From positions 76,188 through 140,187 of the forward strand of contig JBEKGJ010000001.1 in NCBI GenBank assembly GCA_050012855.1: a stretch of DNA of 64,000 bases. The letters run 5' to 3'. Position numbers and translations under genes: made by a program. The notes beneath the pieces are model-generated. The model made no database searches. It worked only from the letters and a program-made list of their open reading frames with translations, and had not been told where the DNA came from. This document shows positions 12,949 through 38,184 of this stretch, in pieces. Source of the stretch: Verrucomicrobiota bacterium (GTDB lineage: Bacteria; Verrucomicrobiota; Verrucomicrobiia; Limisphaerales; J093). The stretch's first letter is position 1; every line of letters starts with the position of its first letter.

Positions 12949-13749
12949 TCACGGTTCAACTCCTGGTGAATCATCTGGTTTGTCAGAAGATTGCGGAAGA
13001 GTTTCCGAAGCAGCGGTGGAGTCGCCAGCGTCAGCCGGTTGAACCTCGGTTTGTTTAACGGCGCGTTTGTTGTAGTGGATTTTTAGCGGCCCGATTAGCT
13101 CCCTTGCGTCAGGGGTGAACAAATCGTGGATCGCTTGGCCCAAGTCTTCAACATCAATCAGAATTCCCTGTCGCCGCCGAATCTCTTTCCTAATCAAACG
13201 AAGAACATCTTCCGTGAAAACCGCCTTTCCGATGGAGTCCGCGCTCAACGCCGACTGGTGTTCCCAAAATTTCTCAAGCGCTCCGACCTTCACAGAATTG
13301 CGGTGAAGGTAAGCGAGCATCTCAGCAGATTTCTCGATTGTCTCTGGCGCGAGAGACTCGGAAAAGACGGGCACGAAATCAACCCCCTCGTCAACGTCAA
13401 ATGTAAGGTGGTATAATTTCCACTCGACACCGTTTGTCACCAAGACCCACCTCATATTTCCCAACGCTGCGTAAAACTCACCCTGAGCAACATGGCGCTC
13501 GCGCAACTTCTTGCCAGCGGCTTTCACCTCGACGAAGAACTTGATTATTCCGTCAATCTTGATCGCGAGATCAACGTAGTTACACTTCACCTCGAACTCG
13601 CGGGAAATTTCTCCGAGGTCATAACCGAGTACATTCTCGAAAACCTTGACGATACGTTGGAGCGTGTCCGCTTCGCTCAGGTTATTTTGTTGAGCCTCCA
13701 ACAGAAGCGGCCAGTATTTTTTTAACTCGTGGGCGATGTTGATTTTCAT
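12949..13749 (-). CDS. HsdR_N-like PD-(D/E)xK nuclease-fold protein (standalone)
   Basis: ATG at 13749 (alternative at 13758). N-terminal half looks like a type I restriction enzyme R N-terminal domain: ...EADTLQRIVKVFENVLGY..., YVDLAIKIDGIIKFFVEVKA (D...E-x-K), WVLVTNGVEWKLY. GC is lower than its surroundings. Confidence 0.7.
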   Translation of the reverse strand: MKINIAHELKKYWPLLLEAQQNNLSEADTLQRIVKVFENVLGYDLGEISREFEVKCNYVDLAIKIDGIIKFFVEVKAAGKKLRERHVAQGEFYAALGNMRWVLVTNGVEWKLYHLTFDVDEGVDFVPVFSESLAPETIEKSAEMLAYLHRNSVKVGALEKFWEHQSALSADSIGKAVFTEDVLRLIRKEIRRRQGILIDVEDLGQAIHDLFTPDARELIGPLKIHYNKRAVKQTEVQPADAGDSTAASETLPQSSDKPDDSPGVEP

Positions 13750-17818: not shown

Positions 17819-18438
17819 GCGAAGAGAAGTCTTCCAAACCTCTTCTCCACGAACTTCAGGCGGCCTGTCGGGATTCTGACCAACCCGTGTCGCTCAATCG
17901 CTTTTTCAAGCGTGCGGCTGTCTTTGCCTGGTTCTGAGTTCACGTTCCCTGTCTTGGTCCATTTGAAGAGCTTCACCAGCACCGGGGTCGTTAGGCAGCA
18001 CAGTGGCGGCCAGCATTCGCCGTTAATGCAGAGGCTCCTGCACCATCCATCCACAATGCACGGAACAGTGTGGTCCATGTGTTTCCAATCGGGAAGAACA
18101 GTGCGTTTGTCTGGGGACGCGAGCGCTCTGCCAAGTCTGATCAGGAACTGGTTTAGCCGCCGTTCTGATTCGGAGTCTTCCGCCATCCAAAGGGCACGGA
18201 GGAAGCCCTGTAAGCCCCGCACACCACGGGCACTACCCGCAGCTTCCACTTGAACCAGTAACATTCGCTCAACGTCGATCTCAATGTCCCCAAGCCTCGC
18301 TCCGCCATGCGCCTTTGTTGGTCTCCATCGTCTGCCCTTGACGATCAGCAGTCGCATTGCGTGCTTCTGGCTTTCGATGCACTCCATCGGAATGTCGAAG
18401 GGCGGCAACTCATTAAGGGGCAATGGCTTCTTCTTCAT
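17815..18438 (-). CDS. hypothetical island protein
   Basis: ORF 17815..18651 trimmed to the ATG at 18438 (MKKKPLPLNELPP...), which overlaps the integrase stop (ATGA). Confidence 0.5.
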   Translation of the reverse strand: MKKKPLPLNELPPFDIPMECIESQKHAMRLLIVKGRRWRPTKAHGGARLGDIEIDVERMLLVQVEAAGSARGVRGLQGFLRALWMAEDSESERRLNQFLIRLGRALASPDKRTVLPDWKHMDHTVPCIVDGWCRSLCINGECWPPLCCLTTPVLVKLFKWTKTGNVNSEPGKDSRTLEKAIERHGLVRIPTGRLKFVEKRFGRLLFA

Positions 18439-19700
18439 ACAGCCTCCTCGGCCGGCAATGTCACGACGTTGGTCGCGGTTGCGGGTGTGATGGCGAACCA
18501 CCGTTCCGCCGCGGCGGGCTTCACAAGCTCGCGGTAGTGGCGATGCACTACGGCGGCGCTGTTGCCCAGTTCGCCCGCCACGCGCCCGGCGTCGCCCGTC
18601 ACTGCAAAGCGATAGCTGGCGTAGGAGTGTCGCAAGGCGTTCGGCTTCCACGCCACCCCCGCCGCGCTCCCGGTCGTTTGCTGGGCGTCGTAAAACTCAT
18701 CATGCGTGCCCGGCCACACCTTGCCCCGTTGCGCGGCGTAGGGTGCCAGCCATGCGGCCAGATTGTCCGCAATGGGCACCACGCGCCGGCTGGCCGTCTT
18801 GGCCTTGTCCGCCCCGATGGTGATGTTACGGCCGGCCAGGTCCACGTCTTCCCAGTCCACCCGCTCGATTTCGGCGGAGCGGAGTCCGGCAAACGCGCCC
18901 AGTGCCACACAGGGCAGAAACTCCGGGTCCGCGGCGGCCAGGAGCTTGGCGATTTCCGCGGGCGTATAGATCGCCACGTCGTGGTCCGGCACTTTGAGGT
19001 TCTCCACTCCTTCAACCGGGTTGTCCACGGCATAGCCACGCGCCACCGCGAACGCAAAGAAGGCGTGCAACACCCGGCGGAAGTTCGTGTAGCTCTGCGG
19101 GGCCAACTTCTGGACATCGAGCCAGGCTTGGATCTCCGCCGTGGTGACGTTCACCGTGTCCTTGTGGAAGGCGTCGGCGAACCGGCCCAACCGGAAACGG
19201 AGGTCTTGCAGGTAGCGGGCTGAGGCGCGGCGGTGCTCCTTGATCGCCAGAAACTCAGTCACGGCGTCGGCCACGGGCTGGCGCGTGGTCTGCTTGTGGC
19301 GGTCGGCGTAGAACTTGGCGGCGGCGTGGAGATTCGGGAGGTCACCGACCAGCTTCAAACACTCCGCCACCGTGCCGGCAGTCGCGGGCAGGGAAAGGTC
19401 GAACGGGGCCAGCGTTTGGACCGCGGAGGCATAGTCGGCCGCCTGCTCGTTGGTCATGGAAGCAGCCACGACTTCGCGCTCGCTCAACTGCCGGGCGAGC
19501 CGCTGGGCGGCTTCCAACGCTTCGGCTTCGTCGGCGTAGGAGTCAAACCGGCGCTTGCCTTGGGCGTAGTTCGCCACCATGAAGGCATGATTGCCGAGGG
19601 GCGTCCGGCGGCGATAGACAGTGACGGTGACGCGGCCGAGGCTGATTTTACGGGGCCAGTGGGCCGCTGCGGCGGGTTTTCGTGATGCGTGCAACACCAT
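18435..19700 (-). CDS. int: tyrosine-type site-specific integrase
   Basis: 421 aa. C-terminal catalytic signature ...GLRSAEI..., LRHSYASYRF, VHRHYRELV (R..HxxR..Y). Starts 88 nt from the tRNA 3' end. Confidence 0.9.
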   Translation of the reverse strand: MVLHASRKPAAAAHWPRKISLGRVTVTVYRRRTPLGNHAFMVANYAQGKRRFDSYADEAEALEAAQRLARQLSEREVVAASMTNEQAADYASAVQTLAPFDLSLPATAGTVAECLKLVGDLPNLHAAAKFYADRHKQTTRQPVADAVTEFLAIKEHRRASARYLQDLRFRLGRFADAFHKDTVNVTTAEIQAWLDVQKLAPQSYTNFRRVLHAFFAFAVARGYAVDNPVEGVENLKVPDHDVAIYTPAEIAKLLAAADPEFLPCVALGAFAGLRSAEIERVDWEDVDLAGRNITIGADKAKTASRRVVPIADNLAAWLAPYAAQRGKVWPGTHDEFYDAQQTTGSAAGVAWKPNALRHSYASYRFAVTGDAGRVAGELGNSAAVVHRHYRELVKPAAAERWFAITPATATNVVTLPAEEAV

Positions 19701-19788: not shown

Positions 19789-19863
19789 TGGAGCCAGTTG
19801 TCGGATTTGAACCGACGACCGACGGTTTACAAAACCGTTGCTCTACCACTGAGCTAAACTGGC
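19789..19863 (-). tRNA. tRNA-Thr (anticodon UGU), 75 nt with encoded CCA
   Basis: Manual cloverleaf: acceptor GCCAGTT/AACTGGC, D arm GCTC-AGTGGTA-GAGC, anticodon arm ACGGT-TTTGTAA-ACCGT, T arm GTCGG-TTCAAAT-CCGAC, then T-CCA. Confidence 0.95.
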
Positions 19864-32363: not shown

Positions 32364-33072
32364 GCTCGATTGATCCCAGGCTCGCTCACGAAAGCAACGC
32401 TTTTTGCGCGTGTTTCTTGCGCGCGCCCATGAGCCTTTGGCAGCAAAAGAAGCCTCCCGTTCCTTTCGGACCTGATCACGGACTATGAACCGATGCAAAA
32501 GCGCGGGCTTCTCCCTCTCCGCCTTGGGGAGAGGGCCAGGGTGAGGTGCTTCTGCCCGTCGCCCCCCAGACAGCGCGGACGCAAACATCGGCAAGCACAA
32601 ACAGAACATCGTCTTTACAAACTGCTTGAGCGGTTCTCGCTGCGGCCCACTGCATTTCACCATTCCTCGCTGGCGACCGGGACACTCCATGCGCGCGCCG
32701 CGTGCCAGTGAAGCCGCGTGAGCGGTGAGCGGTGGACAGTCGTTCCGTCATCCGGCAATCCGGCGTGTCGCCACGGGACGCTGGGGGCTGAATCCAGAAT
32801 CGAGCCGCCACAAGCCGCCACAGAAAGCACAATGGGTTTCAGGCGACGGGTGCCAGTGAGCACAGACCGCGAGAGGCTGGTTACTGCGGTCGGCAGGCCG
32901 GGCGCCACCGTTTCGCCTGGGGCACGGCCCCATGAACTGCGTCCCCTGCGGGCGAGCGTGGCCTGTCCGTGAACACAGCCCGGCGACGGCAACATGCCAA
33001 AATCAAGAGCTCCGTCGTAAAAAGCACCATACTACGGACCGCCCCTTCATGCACCAAAAGTCAGGCCGATAA

Positions 33073-33681
33073 TCAGCAAACAGAACAAGAAGCCACTGAA
33101 CTCAGCGATGACATAAGGAAGAGGCCGGAACGCCGTAACGAACTCTCGCGCTGTGTAGCGTGCCCGCTGCATAGAAAAGCGGACTTCGCGTCCGGAGGGT
33201 TCGATGGCTGAAGACCGGCACCTGCCACCCACCTCGTCAGGAGAATGTAGATGTCGAGAAGTGAAACGACCCCGGAAGCATAAACCGAAAAGCGACCACA
33301 CATCTTGTCCAGAACAACGGCATTAAAACCAACGACCGCTGCAGTGAACCAAAACTGCTCGTCTCGGTAGTTTGAATGGGTTTCGCTCACGATGTGGGTC
33401 GAGTATGGCTAACTCCAACGCTGAGGCGCAGCCGCCAGAACAACCGAAAGGACAACCATAAAACAAAACCAAACGAATGCGGACAGGCTGGCGGCTGTTG
33501 CCTCCAGAACCTTGTTAGCCATCAACATACCACCCAGAACAAATACGACTTGGGTTGAGGACTTGTTGTGGCGGGAAGAAAACACCGTAAACGCAACTTT
33601 GCCCCTCTCATGTAGAGAATTTTTGCTTTTACTAGATCGTCCGGCGATAATGGTTCTGGCGGCCAGAACTCCCCAGCGCAT
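33073..33681 (-). pseudogene. cassette-3 membrane-protein ORF interrupted by a single in-frame TAG
   Basis: ORFs 33409..33681 and 33073..33390 are in the same frame, separated only by the TAG at 33409-33411 plus 6 codons. Both parts are rich in hydrophobic helices (SAFVWFCFMVVLSVVLAAA; FWFTAAVVGFNAVVL; VVSLLDIYILL). Confidence 0.4.
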
Positions 33682-33837
33682 CGCTCGCTATCATACGATG
33701 CTGGTCCGATGGAAAGACAGTGGTGCTCGTGATCCAGAATCATTACTTCTTCCGTGGTATCCTGAGATTTGGAAGCGGTCCTATCTGGCAACTCTTGATT
33801 GTCTGTGTGCATATTTTGAAGTGGATGCGGCGTTAAA

Positions 33838-33939
33838 GTCTAACGCAAAGGTCAGCGACGGGAGCCGGCCGCCGATGATTTTCGATTTGTCCTGCAAGCT
33901 GAGCGGCTGGCTCCCGTTCGCTGGACCGAATTGTTGAAC
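33838..33939 (-). repeat. attC site 2 (102 nt)
   Basis: Read on the minus strand: R'' GTTCAAC (fits RYYYAAC), 8 nt after the cassette stop. Arms ACGGGAGCCAGCCGC / GCGGCCGGCTCCCGT, with unpaired extra bases in the outer stem. R' GTTAGAC (fits GTTRRRY). Confidence 0.75.
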
Positions 33940-33946
33940 GCATTCT

Positions 33947-35614
33947 TCAAATCCTTCCATACTTGTAACGCCCGATTATCTGAGCGTTGAGGTAACGTCC
34001 CTTCGACGGAGCACTGAGCAAGGCTGTATAGACCGGTTCTGGCACTGATTGATAGAAATATCGAGATCCACTCTTGAATGCCACGTAGAGGGTCTGCGCG
34101 TTGCTGTCGTAGCAGACACCGGCAATGTCCGATGACTCCACCGGCACGAAGGTGATGCCACCCGACACGATGGGAGCGTCCGGCACGGGAGGCCGTGCCT
34201 CGGTACGAGGCATGCTGCCCAACGCATCGGACGGCCTCGCGCCCGATAGGGCATTTACGGATACCCTACCAAGGTAGTCAGTGAGAACATTCTCGAAGGA
34301 CCGAGTACAGTCTGCCGCGCCGGAGACGGTGTGTGCGCACTCGTGCAGCAGCGTTCCCGCAAATGTTGAAAGCAAGCGCAGTTGCGTCCGCTTCACAATC
34401 ACCGCCTTGAGATTGCTGTCCCATGCTCCTTTGGTGTCGTCTTCTGACGTGCGCATGGTTTGGGAAACCAAAATCCGTGGTATATCTCTCTGGCGGAGAC
34501 CAACCAGGCCGAGTATCTGATATCGACTTTGCCATACCACGCGCTCATTCTCTGTAAACTCATTCTCTTCCACAAACTCGTACTGGAAACTTTCATTGAC
34601 CGACTGAATCCACGTACGCAAAGTCTGAAACGGCGCTGCGCCTTGCTCGGCCTGTTGGTCTGCGCGCTGTTTTTCTCGGTCTGTGACCAAAACAATGTTA
34701 CGGCCGTCACTCTTGATGTCCTCAACAAGTTCTGGCCGTGCCTTGATCTCTGTCTGCGAAATCACAACCACATTTAGCTTCTTGGCCAACTCGTTCAACG
34801 CTTTGTGTGAGATGTCGACCCATGTCAGTTCCTCCGGTAGCTCGCCTTCGTCCCTGCGTGCGTACGCTGAGGCAAGCGGTTCCAGAACAGGAGGCGCGTT
34901 CGAGGATTTCAGTATCTGGCGTATGCGATCCGCATACACCGACCTGCCGACATTAACCCGTTCACGATTGAGGGCTTTTCGCATGGGCTCGGTGAGACTC
35001 GTGACGTTGTACGAAAACAGGAAGGTGGGTTCGGCGTTAACCCACACACCATTGACGAACACCTCCGACCCTGCTGATGGGGCCGCAATTACCTGGCCAA
35101 AGGGTGTGGCGTCAAGAACGCGGTGTTCCCTGAAGCGGAGAAACATTCCTCTCGCCTTTTCGATGGCGGCGTCGGGTACGCCGGTAAGAATGAAGTCAGT
35201 ACCGCGCGACGACTGACCTGTGGGCTCGTGCGAGATGTGAAGCGTGGTTATTCCATCGAAATTGTGCTTTGCCGCCTTGGTCAGAGTGAAGGTGCCATGT
35301 TGAGACCGGATGGCAACGCTCACGTGATGCCGATCAAGGGCGGCAAGGGCGTCTTTCAGGCCGACCCCAAACTTGCCGATCACGCCGTCTGCCCCCATCT
35401 TCTCCCGGTTTTCGTTGAGTGTGAAGTGTTCAATCCTGATGCCGCGGCCATAGTCCTGGATATGCCAGCGTCCGGCATTGTCCTTGGCGATAGTGATGGG
35501 CTCCGTCCCGCTCAGCATACACTCATCGAGGGCATTGGCTATGATCTCACGGAGTCCGTGTTCAACTTCCCAATGCTCAAGAACCGTCTCGATATTGAGG
35601 TCAAATAGAGGCAT
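33947..35614 (-). CDS. integron-cassette protein: GHKL (Bergerat-fold, MORC/HATPase_c_3-like) ATPase, then unknown middle region, HExxH metallopeptidase-like motif and C-terminal KTSC domain
   Basis: N box E23-IIAN27-ALD30, G1 box D54-Y-G-R-G58, G2 box G80-KFGVG. H424-ECA-H428 is encoded at 34331-34345. The C-terminal ~65 aa carry the YxY motif (GSRYFYQSVPEPVYTALLSAPSKGRYLN), typical of KTSC. Confidence 0.85.
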   Translation of the reverse strand: MPLFDLNIETVLEHWEVEHGLREIIANALDECMLSGTEPITIAKDNAGRWHIQDYGRGIRIEHFTLNENREKMGADGVIGKFGVGLKDALAALDRHHVSVAIRSQHGTFTLTKAAKHNFDGITTLHISHEPTGQSSRGTDFILTGVPDAAIEKARGMFLRFREHRVLDATPFGQVIAAPSAGSEVFVNGVWVNAEPTFLFSYNVTSLTEPMRKALNRERVNVGRSVYADRIRQILKSSNAPPVLEPLASAYARRDEGELPEELTWVDISHKALNELAKKLNVVVISQTEIKARPELVEDIKSDGRNIVLVTDREKQRADQQAEQGAAPFQTLRTWIQSVNESFQYEFVEENEFTENERVVWQSRYQILGLVGLRQRDIPRILVSQTMRTSEDDTKGAWDSNLKAVIVKRTQLRLLSTFAGTLLHECAHTVSGAADCTRSFENVLTDYLGRVSVNALSGARPSDALGSMPRTEARPPVPDAPIVSGGITFVPVESSDIAGVCYDSNAQTLYVAFKSGSRYFYQSVPEPVYTALLSAPSKGRYLNAQIIGRYKYGRI

Positions 35615-35640
35615 GACGCGCGAAACTCTCTGTTCTTATC

Positions 35641-35742
35641 GTCCGACGTTCAGCATCAGCGGCGGGAGCCAGCCGCCACTGACGCACGGATCGGGATTGA
35701 CCTGAACGGCTGGCGCCCATCCGCTGAATGCTGTGGTTGGAG
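35641..35742 (-). repeat. attC site 1 (102 nt, core degenerate)
   Basis: Same length as attC2, with homologous arms (CAGCGGATGGGCGCCAGCCG / CGGCTGGCTCCCGCCGCTG). R'' is CTCCAAC. R' is GTCGGAC (T-to-C change in the GTT core). Confidence 0.6.
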
Positions 35743-35775
35743 CTCATGATGGAGGCGTCCCTTCTTCGGCGCCTG

Positions 35776-36114
35776 CTAGGGTCCGTCGAGGACGAAGTCG
35801 CAGCCCGAGACAGCATCGCTCGCCTCGGCCTTGCGGATTAGCTCCACCTGGCCCTGATCCAGCGAATCGACACCTTGGGCCAATAACACCCTCTCGGCTG
35901 ACGTCTGGCCCAAGCCGCCGAGATTCTCCGCCGGCGCCACTGGCACCCTGGGATCGTAAACGAGCTTGAGGACATAACGCCCGTCTTGGCGGGGCAGCGA
36001 GGCTTCCATATATCCGGCTGAGATGTCACCCTCGTCGTTCTTGACGGCTAGCCGTTTGTGGTGAAGGCCCTCGCGTTGGAGGGTCGGATGTTTCACGTAA
36101 TGGAGCGTGTTCAT
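35776..36114 (-). CDS. hypothetical protein, first integron cassette
   Basis: 112-aa ORF with ATG at 36114, 23 nt after the candidate attI crossover. No motif recognised. Confidence 0.5.
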   Translation of the reverse strand: MNTLHYVKHPTLQREGLHHKRLAVKNDEGDISAGYMEASLPRQDGRYVLKLVYDPRVPVAPAENLGGLGQTSAERVLLAQGVDSLDQGQVELIRKAEASDAVSGCDFVLDGP

Positions 36115-36131
36115 ATTGGTTCTAGCCTATG

Positions 36132-36138
36132 ATCCAAC
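36132..36138 (-). other. candidate attI recombination core (GTTGGAT on minus strand)
   Basis: Fits GTTRRRY. Lies between intI (start 36257) and the first cassette ORF, at the same ~22-nt distance to the ATG as in cassette 2. Confidence 0.35.
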
Positions 36139-36256
36139 CGTTGATTAACATGTCATTTTGACGTGATAATATGATATTGGCGGGGTTTTACCGCCCCCCC
36201 TTCTTGACCGGCGGTAATGTCCGGGTCATCATGGAATAAACACTCGTTGGAACCGG

Positions 36257-36981
36257 ATGGACAGTCAAGCCAGAACGCCGAAGCTTTTGGATCGGGTGCG
36301 CCAGGTGATGCGGTTGCACCACTACTCCCTGCACACCGAACGGGCCGACGTGGACTGGATCAGACGCTATGTCCATTTCCATCGGATGCAACGGCGCGAA
36401 GACCTGGACGGCGGGGAGGCCAAGATCGAGGCGTTTCTGAGCGACCTGGCGGTGAACGGGCGGGTGGTCCCGGCGACTCAGAACCAAGCAATGAACGCGC
36501 TGGTCTTCCTGTACAAACACATGCTGAACGTGCCGCTGGATCAAGCGATTCAGGCGGTGCGGGCGGAGCGCGAGACGAACGTGCCGGTGGTGCTGACGCG
36601 CGGCGAGGTGGCCCAAGTCCTTCCGTTGGTCGAAGGGGTGTCGCACCTGGTGGTGAAGTTGCTGGATGACTTGGCGGGGTGAGGCCCGCGGGTCGTTGAC
36701 GGAACAGAAGCGAGTCGGCGGCTCGTGCGTAGGGTGGATTTATGACAGAAGCGGTCGGAAATGGGACCGAGAAAAGTTGGAATTGGGAAGGCCAGAGGAT
36801 GTCGCGGCCCAGCGGTCCGCGAGCCACCTGGCGAACAAGCAGGTACGGACGCGCTGCGCGTGAAGGGGTCTTTGTATTGGTAAGTGCCGTCAGCCCAGAA
36901 CTCCGGGCCGTTCCTCTCCCCCACCAGGGCCTCGCGGTCGCGGGGGTAGCGGGCGGCTTGAGTTCCTGGCCTTGTGGATAA
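36257..36981 (+). pseudogene. intI: integron integrase (IntI-like tyrosine recombinase), frameshifted and truncated
   Basis: ORF 36257..36682 matches the IntI N-terminal pattern (YSLHTERADVDWIRRYVHFH, IEAFLSDLAVNGRVVPATQNQAMNALVFLYKHML, NVPVVLTRGEV) but stops at ...KLLDDLAG where LLYGxGxR is expected. Weak IntI-like traces continue in other frames (WIYDRSGRKWDRE; VPLPHQGLAVAGVAGGLSSWP). No catalytic C-terminus remains. Confidence 0.8.
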
Positions 36982-37047
36982 CGCCGCGAGCGGTGCAGTT
37001 GACTTTCGGCAACCCGACGGGAATGACACCGCGCCAGCAAGGAGCAT

Positions 37048-37482
37048 TCATGGTTTCACCTTCAACCCCGCCGCTTTCGCCAAAGCCGTCTGCCGCGTGT
37101 CGCAGGTCAGAAACTCGGTGGCCTTTAACGCCAGCGCCAGCCCGACGTGCAGCAGGTCAATGCTGCGCATGCCGAGCCTCTCCGTGTGGGTTCCCGCCAG
37201 TTCCTCGGAATGCCGGAACGTGTCGGTCCACGGGATGGGCACATGCGCCAGGATGTTGTCGGCGAGGTCGGACTCGATTCCTTGAAACGCCAGGTTGCGT
37301 TGCGCCGGCGTGATTTCGCCGCGAAAGACGCGCCGGCGAATCGCGTGCCGCAGTTCGTGGCGATGCAGGGGGGTGAACGGGAGCGGTTCCCGGGCCTTCT
37401 GGAGCCACAGCAACACCTTCGGGGAATCGGCATGTGGGGTGTAAACCCGGGCCAGGAAACTCGTGTCGGCGTAGGCGGGCAT
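37048..37482 (-). CDS. vapC: PIN-domain toxin VapC
   Basis: MPAYADTSFL (N-terminal Asp), ...HRHELRHA..., SIDLLHV, LTCD. 144 aa. Confidence 0.85.
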   Translation of the reverse strand: MPAYADTSFLARVYTPHADSPKVLLWLQKAREPLPFTPLHRHELRHAIRRRVFRGEITPAQRNLAFQGIESDLADNILAHVPIPWTDTFRHSEELAGTHTERLGMRSIDLLHVGLALALKATEFLTCDTRQTALAKAAGLKVKP

Positions 37483-37484
37483 AC

Positions 37485-37525
37485 TGGAAGGTTGAAGGTT
37501 GAGAGTTGAGGGTTGAGGGAATTGC
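37485..37525. repeat. heptamer tandem repeat inserted between vapB and vapC
   Basis: Plus strand: CTGGAAG GTTGAAG GTTGAGA GTTGAGG GTTGAGG GAATTGC. Confidence 0.8.
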
Positions 37526-37578
37526 GCGCCCCCGATTCTCTCCCTCGTAGCCAGGGCGGCGGGTGGGCAGGCGCGGCA

Positions 37579-37827
37579 TCAGTACGGCCGGGATTCACGT
37601 TCTTCCACGACCACATCGCCCGGCAACACGACGTCGCCGTAGATGCGTTGGAGCCGCGCGGCGAAGTCGGGACGCTGCTTCGGTCGGGGGGACTTCGAGG
37701 CCGGTGGCGGAGCGAGCAGCGCGATGATTCTGCCACGTTTGCTGATGGCCACCGGCTCGCCCTGTTCCACCCAGGCAAAGACACTGCCAAAATCGTGCCG
37801 CAGTTTCCGCAAGGTCGCCGTCTTCAT
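37579..37827 (-). CDS. Phd/YefM-like antitoxin (VapB partner)
   Basis: ATG at 37827. MKTATLRKLRHDFGSVFAWVEQGEPVAISKRGRIIALL is a typical antitoxin N-terminus. Lies upstream of vapC. Confidence 0.7.
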   Translation of the reverse strand: MKTATLRKLRHDFGSVFAWVEQGEPVAISKRGRIIALLAPPPASKSPRPKQRPDFAARLQRIYGDVVLPGDVVVEERESRPY

Positions 37828-38184
37828 GTGCAACAAGTATGTTTAACTTCGTGCGGAAGTCAATCGGGCAAATCTCTCCCCCGCGCAGACATGCGTGGCG
37901 GGGTCGGTCCGTAGTATCGTGCTTTGACGACTCTGCACTTGATTCTGGCTTGGTACCATCGGCCGGGCTGCGTTCACGGATCGGCCACGCCATACGCGGG
38001 CTTTTTTTCGCGAATCTTTTTCGAGGCGGCTAGAGCAGCGGCAGCGCCGGCCACGGCAGAAATCTCCGGCAGTTGAGGGCCGCTGCTGGCCACTCAACTC
38101 TCATCCATCATCCGCCTCACGCCACCGCCACCACCGGTTGCGCCGGGAAATCCACCTGTGCCGCCGCCGCCGGTTCGACGCCGC

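Follow-up and report, generated by a model that had tools for sequence, protein, structure and literature searches.

The question raised by the window, a stretch of 64,000 nucleotides from contig JBEKGJ010000001.1 of an uncultured peatland Verrucomicrobiota bacterium, is whether a run of minus-strand genes at 33000–36250 and the integrase-like open reading frame (ORF) beside it are what is left of an integron. A reading made from the letters alone, here called the sequence-only reading, had proposed a decayed chromosomal integron with two attC recombination sites. The locus is regarded as a small, decayed chromosomal integron remnant with a probability of about 0.9. Still present are attI, three complete cassettes each closed by an attC site, a fourth, damaged cassette, and an intI gene cut after codon 136. 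The observation is far beyond chance, and the earlier interpretation is supported, with corrections of detail; the refuting conditions named with it were each checked in equivalent form, and none told against it. As an element the locus is genuine but unremarkable, of a kind already well known.

Composition and class of the locus

The G + C content of 33000–36250 is 0.50–0.58 against 0.62–0.68 in the surroundings, a drop of 8–15 points. All ORFs in this low-GC region are on the minus strand, as had been claimed for the cargo. Host-like G + C content is found in intI, in a toxin-antitoxin pair next to it and in the flanks; foreign-looking composition is confined to the cassettes. The limits of the locus are wider than in the sequence-only reading and extend to inverted repeats at 32956 and 37990.

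Integron anatomy is present in the form of an attI site beside intI, attC sites, and single-ORF cassettes in one orientation, each with its attC. The complete IntI that defines a functional platform, with the RHRY residues and the IntI-specific additional domain, is absent from the window gene. A cluster of attC sites lacking integron integrase (CALIN) is a category defined by IntegronFinder (Cury et al. 2016, PMC4889954). To qualify, a locus needs a cluster of two attC sites or more in 4 kb, and the Phage_integrase and intI_Cterm profiles, applied jointly, must detect no intI there. The locus has three attC sites in 2.3 kb, called with home-made models, and no catalytic or C-terminal integrase domain. 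It is a CALIN-type remnant with an N-terminal intI pseudogene.

Integrase gene remnant

36257..36682, plus strand: intI pseudogene of 141 codons; 136 homologous codons (36257–36663), then an unrelated tail of 5 codons and a stop

The IntI-type N-terminus that the sequence-only reading saw in this ORF is borne out by Phage_int_SAM_4 of Pfam (5.8e-21) and, in NCBIfam, by TIGR02249 (2.4e-35; model positions 1–125 of 315; 122 bits, cut-off 265) and NF011946 (1e-23). The TIGR02249 match represents the N-terminal 40% of an integron integrase. No Xer model was reported for the ORF by NCBIfam at E ≤ 0.01; the ORF matches integron-integrase models and not XerC/XerD.

The sequence-only reading had the ORF lose frame at the LLYGxG box, and this is where homology ends. 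In protein alignments with relatives the ORF leaves the family exactly at KLL|YGSGLR (LLYGSG box), and nucleotide homology to 13 related loci ends abruptly at 36663/4. No remnant of the catalytic domain was found in the whole window with a full-length 336-aa relative (from locus L007, QHPA01000078.1) or with the C-terminal fragment of an 84%-identical relative as the query. Since DNA homology stops at 36663/4 and no further integrase-like segment occurs in 64 kb, the gene has lost everything from box I onwards. In the relative that is 84% identical over the shared N-terminal part, the IntI-specific segment is present in the C-terminal fragment. The weak out-of-frame traces described after the break did not hold up: the resemblance is in frame, interrupted by stops, extends to about 36754 and is seen by tblastn only, without nucleotide support. 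It is probably due to chance, because nucleotide homology does not continue.

The closest IntI relative, protein P0001, is 90% identical. The window fragment has replacements of its own at otherwise invariant IntI residues (e.g. Y31D), which points to relaxed constraint. Among 81 genome loci with relatives, 58 encode full-length IntI (303–476 aa, mostly 326–340) and 23 are truncated by varied lesions; inactivation of the integrase is therefore common in this clade.

Breakpoints were examined in the relatives P0020, P0031, P0033, P0043, P0057 and P0062. In several independent relatives IntI homology breaks off at the KLL codon, just as in the window gene (tails LPPR and GPVLK, each followed by a stop). 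Two others have a clean in-frame deletion joining residue ~120 to a C-terminal THILQQGG tail, and further truncated relatives break at different positions. A common insertion hotspot at the KLL codon was considered; with several relatives broken there and others at many places, no site-specific claim is made.

Two other lesions were seen in related genes. At L095:170–2397 (also in L096 and L097) an ORF for a GIY-YIG endonuclease of 86 aa interrupts intI near residue 190. The L095 intI is 84% identical to the window fragment, and an IS91-family (Y2) transposase gene, with no similarity to the window, directly follows the split gene. This arrangement may reflect insertion of a homing endonuclease or an intron-like element into the gene of an integron integrase. 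At L004:10109–14074 the N- and C-terminal fragments of intI lie 3.4 kb apart, with a DUF642 gene and an attC match (13003–13097, minus strand; model R2, described below) between them, which suggests that cassette-like DNA was inserted into the integrase gene itself.

attC sites

35641..35742, minus strand: attC1; R'' CTCCAAC, R' GTCGGAC; R2 43.1 bits, E 1.6e-8
33838..33939, minus strand: attC2; R'' GTTCAAC-AATTC..., R' GTTAGAC; R2 60.3 bits, E 7e-13
33407..33520, minus strand: attC3; R'' GGCTAAC, R' GTTAGCC, perfectly complementary; R2 48.6 bits, E 6.7e-10

The two 102-nt elements at 33838–33939 and 35641–35742 share arms of 84–85% identity, and zero-mismatch matches to the shared-arm pattern are limited to these two in 64 kb. 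A covariance model (R1) was made from them with a hand-drawn R''-L''/L'-R' structure and run on 81 loci collected solely for encoding a relative of the integrase fragment. It gave 32 matches, 29 of them on the strand opposite intI. The 14 best non-window matches were used for a second model (R2), which contains no window sequence. In the 14-site alignment 90.7% of cells pair, compensatory changes occur at 20 of the 30 pairs, and the AAC...GTT ends are invariant. In 84 other loci (780 kb, both strands, E ≤ 0.01) R2 gave 83 matches; every one lies opposite intI, on the cassette strand, and 81 are upstream of intI. R2 is thus a specific attC detector by its behaviour.

Run on the whole window without filters, R2 gave exactly three matches at E < 0.1, all on the minus strand and all inside the integron region; on the plus strand attC2 scores 15.4 bits only. 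A check with the attC model had been proposed, and this equivalent model, built from arrays of other genomes, matched both 102-nt elements strongly. The two sites of the sequence-only reading stand as attC; a third, at 33407–33520 on the minus strand, had been missed. No other member of the attC family was found at E < 0.1 in 64 kb, nor any dispersal there of the kind seen for repetitive extragenic palindromic (REP) sequences or bacterial interspersed mosaic elements (BIME). On this evidence the three palindromes are taken as genuine attC sites.

Predicted folds are of the same kind. The attC1 and attC2 sites fold as imperfect hairpins, with DNA z-scores of -2.5 to -5.0, depending on the strand, over 126-nt stretches; their exact plus strands give -4.5 and -4.6, beyond shuffled controls. 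In the plus strand of attC3 (z -3.4) the R boxes form a helix of 7 bp, and the 3' arm has two bulges of one base each, 6 nt apart. Extrahelical bases on the bottom (plus) strand are T33917 and G33923 in attC2 and T33498 and C33504 in attC3; in attC1 net extra bases lie in the 3' arm of the plus strand, at 35719–20 and A35727. Common to the three plus strands are spacers left unpaired, followed by a long stem whose 3' (L'') arm, and only that arm, has two extra bases about 6 nt apart. The predicted folds of attC1 and attC3 include an R-box helix; the boxes of attC2 match at only 5 of 7 positions and are left unpaired. An R-box helix, unpaired spacers, a long stem and two one-sided extra bases are the canonical attC architecture. 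Both the R''-L''/L'-R' hairpins with extrahelical bases, for which folding of the bottom strands had been suggested, and the restriction of the extra bases to one arm were thus recovered. Deviations of attC1 from the consensus are a C at position 1 of R'' and GTC in R'.

attI and cassette array

36132..36256, minus strand: attI and divergent promoter region; core GTTGGAT 36138–36132, crossover G|TT (36138|36137)
36137–35647, minus strand: cassette 1, 491 bp; ORF 35776..36114, 112 aa, no family match
35646–33844, minus strand: cassette 2, 1803 bp; ORF 33947..35614, 555 aa
33843–33413, minus strand: cassette 3, 431 bp; ORF 33522..33812, 96 aa, intact, no family match
33046..33412, minus strand: cassette 4 remnant; frameshifted gene of a small membrane protein, ending at 33047, probably truncated at its 3' end, no attC

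Cassette limits are drawn with crossovers at G|TT and listed in cassette direction. The core sites GTTGGAT (36138–36132) and GTCGGAC (35647–35641) lie where the sequence-only reading had placed them. The block 36139–36256 is conserved among relatives. In an alignment of seven loci, the window and six with related intI, similarity extends from the intI start codon as far as ...AAC, which is GTT on the cassette strand; beyond it each locus has its own RRRY bases and its own first cassette. The attI crossover at GTT is supported, because conservation across the seven loci ends there. Promoter-like hexamers occur on both strands in 36129–36232, as consensus matches only (5 found against 1.5 expected, in a scanned region of 5.2 kb).

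Each complete cassette has one minus-strand ORF, which ends 1–33 nt before its own attC. The stop codon of the cassette 3 ORF ends one nucleotide before R'' of attC3, and its ATG is 25 nt after R' of attC2. Cassettes 3 and 4 had been merged in the sequence-only reading, which placed an in-frame stop in the third cassette and stated that no attC closes the array. Both statements are corrected here: attC3 closes cassette 3, the 96-aa ORF of cassette 3 is intact, and the damage is a frameshift near 33176 in cassette 4. Homologues of the cassette 4 product (124–142 aa) align to two frames, -1 (33390 to 33178) and -3 (about 33200 to 33050), and run 7–14 residues past the stop at 33047. The gene is therefore frameshifted and probably also truncated at its 3' end. 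No R2 match that could be an attC after cassette 4 was found left of 33407.

In a 2100-aa protein, P0256, which matches window positions 33073–33390, residues 36–67 of the cassette 4 product are matched in 25 separate stretches; a short membrane segment of the cassette 4 type is thus repeated many times in P0256. PADLOC gave no defence-system match for any cassette protein or for the PIN protein encoded beyond intI.

Cassette 2 and its copy in another genome

The cassette 2 protein (33947–35614) has a GHKL-type ATPase N-terminus (Pfam MPN635_N, weak HATPase_c), an HExxH motif and a C-terminal KTSC domain. Its family comprises more than 3000 uncharacterised homologues, in which the GHKL N-box, G1 and G2 and the HExxH motif are invariant and KTSC is optional. 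The KTSC domain is also C-terminal in a chain of a HerA-domain protein in PDB (8wiv). The exact cassette 2 protein is annotated by NCBI from a Verrucomicrobiota metagenome-assembled genome (MAG).

Another Verrucomicrobiota MAG (GCA_964625855.1, locus L089) encodes a protein 90% identical to the cassette 2 product. Nucleotide homology is 92% from window position 35648 to 33932; it starts at the crossover of attC1 R' and ends just after attC2 R''. In L089 the cassette 2 gene follows another cassette, one with a 135-aa ORF and an attC of its own (R2 32.7 bits), and no intI is found near this copy. Past mobility of cassette 2 is indicated, because the L089 copy begins at the crossover, behind a different cassette and attC. 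The junction reads GTTGAAC in L089 and GTCGGAC in the window, and TTGAAC of L089 is the exact complement of the corresponding bases of cassette 2's R'' GTTCAAC. With GTTGAAC at the homologous junction, the window GTC core is a derived mutation of the conserved GTT triplet, which agrees with the GTT-to-GTC decay proposed by the sequence-only reading.

At its other end (L089:9676–9700 against window 33939–33925) homology stops right after R'' GTTCAAC(A), and the rest of the attC is missing from the L089 copy. For a bottom-strand crossover, the AAC of R'' is an unusual place to break.

The cassette 2 protein is a candidate conflict-system gene product. Conceivably the GHKL-ATPase/HExxH/KTSC protein is a new defence or toxin module that consists of a single gene and is spread by integrons, and the cassette-borne gene is a candidate for functional screening.

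Proposed history and population

How the integron would have worked is deduced from its parts and from what is established for integrons in general. Its tyrosine recombinase, IntI, encoded by a gene read rightwards from 36257, would have acted on the folded bottom strands of the attC sites of circular cassettes. Each attC would have recombined with attI at G|TT (36138|36137), and promoterless cassettes would thereby have been stacked on the opposite strand and read from a promoter in the attI/intI region. Loss of the catalytic half of the integrase would then have frozen the array. Progressive decay of the locus is indicated by the truncated intI, the GTC core of attC1 and the damaged cassette 4 without attC. 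The array can no longer rearrange by itself, because the integrase is cut off before every catalytic residue. The sites attC2 and attC3 look intact and could still serve an integrase supplied in trans.

The 141-aa ORF has the same neighbouring genes in the same orientation in 24 of the 24 contigs read (out of 55 index blocks), and three Joint Genome Institute (JGI) contigs from different samples have 0–1 mismatches to the window over 20 kb. The locus is therefore not an assembly artefact. No cassette turnover was seen among the 24 contigs, in which gene order is identical. Since the locus is identical in independent metagenome assemblies, the array is fixed and immobile. The immobilised array after integrase loss that the sequence-only reading had proposed is thereby supported, by the truncated intI and by the identical array in 24 contigs.

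Several points weigh against reading the locus as an integron that decayed in place. The attC call depends on home-made models seeded from the window, R2 itself being free of window sequence and validated by genomic context. The promoters Pc and PintI are consensus matches only. The IntI-specific extra domain and the catalytic residues are missing from the gene. The ratio of nonsynonymous to synonymous substitution (dN/dS) of the fragment against its relatives is still low, 0.15–0.25; the truncation may therefore be recent, or the fragment may retain a function. A search for an empty site, or for an intact integron at this chromosomal position in a related genome, found neither; orthologues of the neighbouring 336-aa gene, through which it was made, were only 54–59% identical and not syntenic. 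The history of the locus is for this reason inferred only.

Flanking inverted repeat and toxin-antitoxin pair

32956..33045, plus strand: left copy of the repeat; lies where cassette 4 is cut short and G + C content falls
37901..37990, minus strand: right copy, the right arm of the inverted repeat
37048..37482, minus strand: PIN-domain (VapC-like) toxin gene (PIN 8e-7); adjoins the integrase remnant, inside the repeats
37579..37836, minus strand: Phd/YefM-like antitoxin gene; weak matches, 1.4e-3 and 2.6e-4, both below the curated cut-offs

A repeat of about 95 nt is present in the window in two copies only, in inverse orientation, with arms ~81% identical (blastn). Everything from the cassettes through attI and the intI remnant to the Phd/PIN pair, ~5 kb, lies between the two copies. 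Further copies of ~80% identity occur singly at two other loci of the same peat metagenomes (L087:100–200, L085:524–623, L088:317–414). The repeat is absent from all other intI loci, gives no attC signal with R2 and has no Rfam match. Rfam gave no family for the attC sites or for the repeat, at the gathering threshold over the whole window and at E-value thresholds over 32800–38100.

Two identities of the repeat were considered and dropped. A structured RNA was rejected, with no covariation on either strand and folding z-scores near 0. A relic of an IS91/Y2 transposase C-terminus was likewise given up as unsupported. The lead was a '...DP..KIL.HLG' tail, in frame in L087, taken as suggestive of such proteins; NCBIfam gave no match for the L087 peptide, the IS91-family transposase of L095 shows no similarity to the window, and no other intI locus has the repeat.

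The Phd-like/PIN (VapBC-type) pair has host-like G + C content and no attC. It is therefore not a cassette-borne toxin-antitoxin pair of the kind known from large chromosomal integrons.

A tyrosine recombinase gene of 421 aa at 18435–19700 on the minus strand (Pfam Phage_integrase 4.8e-7) adjoins a tRNA gene at 19792–19863 on the minus strand. A recombinase beside a tRNA is the usual boundary signature of an island or prophage; the recombinase at 18435–19700 is unrelated to the integron.

Alternative explanations

The bracketing repeats raise the possibility that the 5-kb unit between them (cassettes, attI, intI remnant, Phd/PIN) is or was a mobile or invertible module, either a non-autonomous composite element or a segment flipping by recombination between the repeats, which carried a pre-loaded array and did not simply decay in place. 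Inverted repeats at 32956–33045 and 37901–37990, ~81% identical and unique in the window, are what such a module would have at its ends. The left arm coincides with the drop in G + C content and the truncated end of cassette 4, and the repeat occurs at other loci of the same peat metagenomes. The unit has, however, no transposase inside and no target-site duplication at its outer ends, the other copies of the repeat are single and not paired, and the repeat is found beside no other intI locus. Gene order and orientation are the same in 24 of the 24 contigs read, and intI, the toxin-antitoxin pair and the flanks share the G + C content of the host, only the cassettes looking foreign. Both forms of the module are considered unlikely; if real, the module would allow frozen cassette arrays to move with no integrase at all. 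Less probable still is that the 141-aa N-terminal fragment of IntI has been kept as a functional protein, e.g. as an att-binding domain that blocks a foreign integrase. The ORF is intact, the region upstream of it is conserved, dN/dS against relatives is 0.15–0.25, and many relatives are N-terminal only (about 130–165 aa), several of them ending at the same KLL codon. Yet truncated relatives break at many positions, by frameshifts, internal deletions and insertions, 58 of the 81 genome relatives are full length, and the window copy has replacements of its own at residues that do not vary elsewhere; most of the low dN/dS goes back to the period before the gene was inactivated.

That the palindromes of 102–114 nt are generic REP/BIME repeats or terminators, and the integrase fragment an unrelated phage or Xer relic, deserves almost no credence and is already contradicted. 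The palindromes are GC-rich hairpins immediately after stop codons, and one arm (33875–33852) fits a simple terminator scan. Against this, no further copies exist in 64 kb, the trained model finds sites only on the cassette side of intI in other genomes, the elements have RYYYAAC/GTTRRRY ends and bulges on one side, the GTT crossover is where homology between genomes starts, and the recombinase fragment matches integron-integrase models only.

Comparison with known systems

In sedentary chromosomal integrons, such as the superintegron of Vibrio cholerae, the cassettes are divergent from intI, with attI between them, the attC sites are similar to one another, most cassettes are of unknown function, and toxin-antitoxin systems are associated. 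The window locus is likewise chromosomal, with divergence around attI, alike attC sites (arms of attC1 and attC2 84–85% identical), cassettes mostly of unknown function and an associated toxin-antitoxin pair. It differs in having only four cassettes and a dead integrase; its toxin-antitoxin pair is beyond intI, not in a cassette, and is not flanked by attC.

In the chromosomal integrons of Xanthomonas, intI is reportedly often inactivated and the array frozen. The window locus shares the chromosomally fixed integron and the array frozen after integrase inactivation; it belongs to another phylum, and no conserved chromosomal insertion site is demonstrable for it.

Class 1 integrons on Tn402 have 25-bp repeats (IRi/IRt), tni transposition genes and 5-bp target duplications. 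An integron platform and array enclosed by inverted repeats are common to both. The window repeats, in contrast, are ~95 nt long and ~81% alike, occur singly elsewhere as well, and are accompanied by neither transposition genes nor a duplication.

A CALIN with an intI pseudogene has a minimum of two attC sites within 4 kb, lacks functional IntI and keeps an intI remnant that can be recognised beside it, as the window does. Such pseudogenes were found near 15 of 279 CALIN, loss of intI was proposed as one origin of CALIN, and Verrucomicrobia are among the phyla with integrons (PMC4889954). The pseudogene screen of that study used a C-terminal IntI profile, whereas the window keeps the N-terminal part only. 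A screen of this kind would therefore probably miss the window remnant and report a plain CALIN. Understanding of how integrons work is unchanged by the locus. It adds a well-delimited example of integron decay from an under-sampled phylum, the peatland Verrucomicrobiota, with a mapped attI crossover, three attC sites and a core mutation dated by comparison. A CALIN that screens with C-terminal profiles would probably label as orphan can have its origin revealed by an intI remnant that is N-terminal only.

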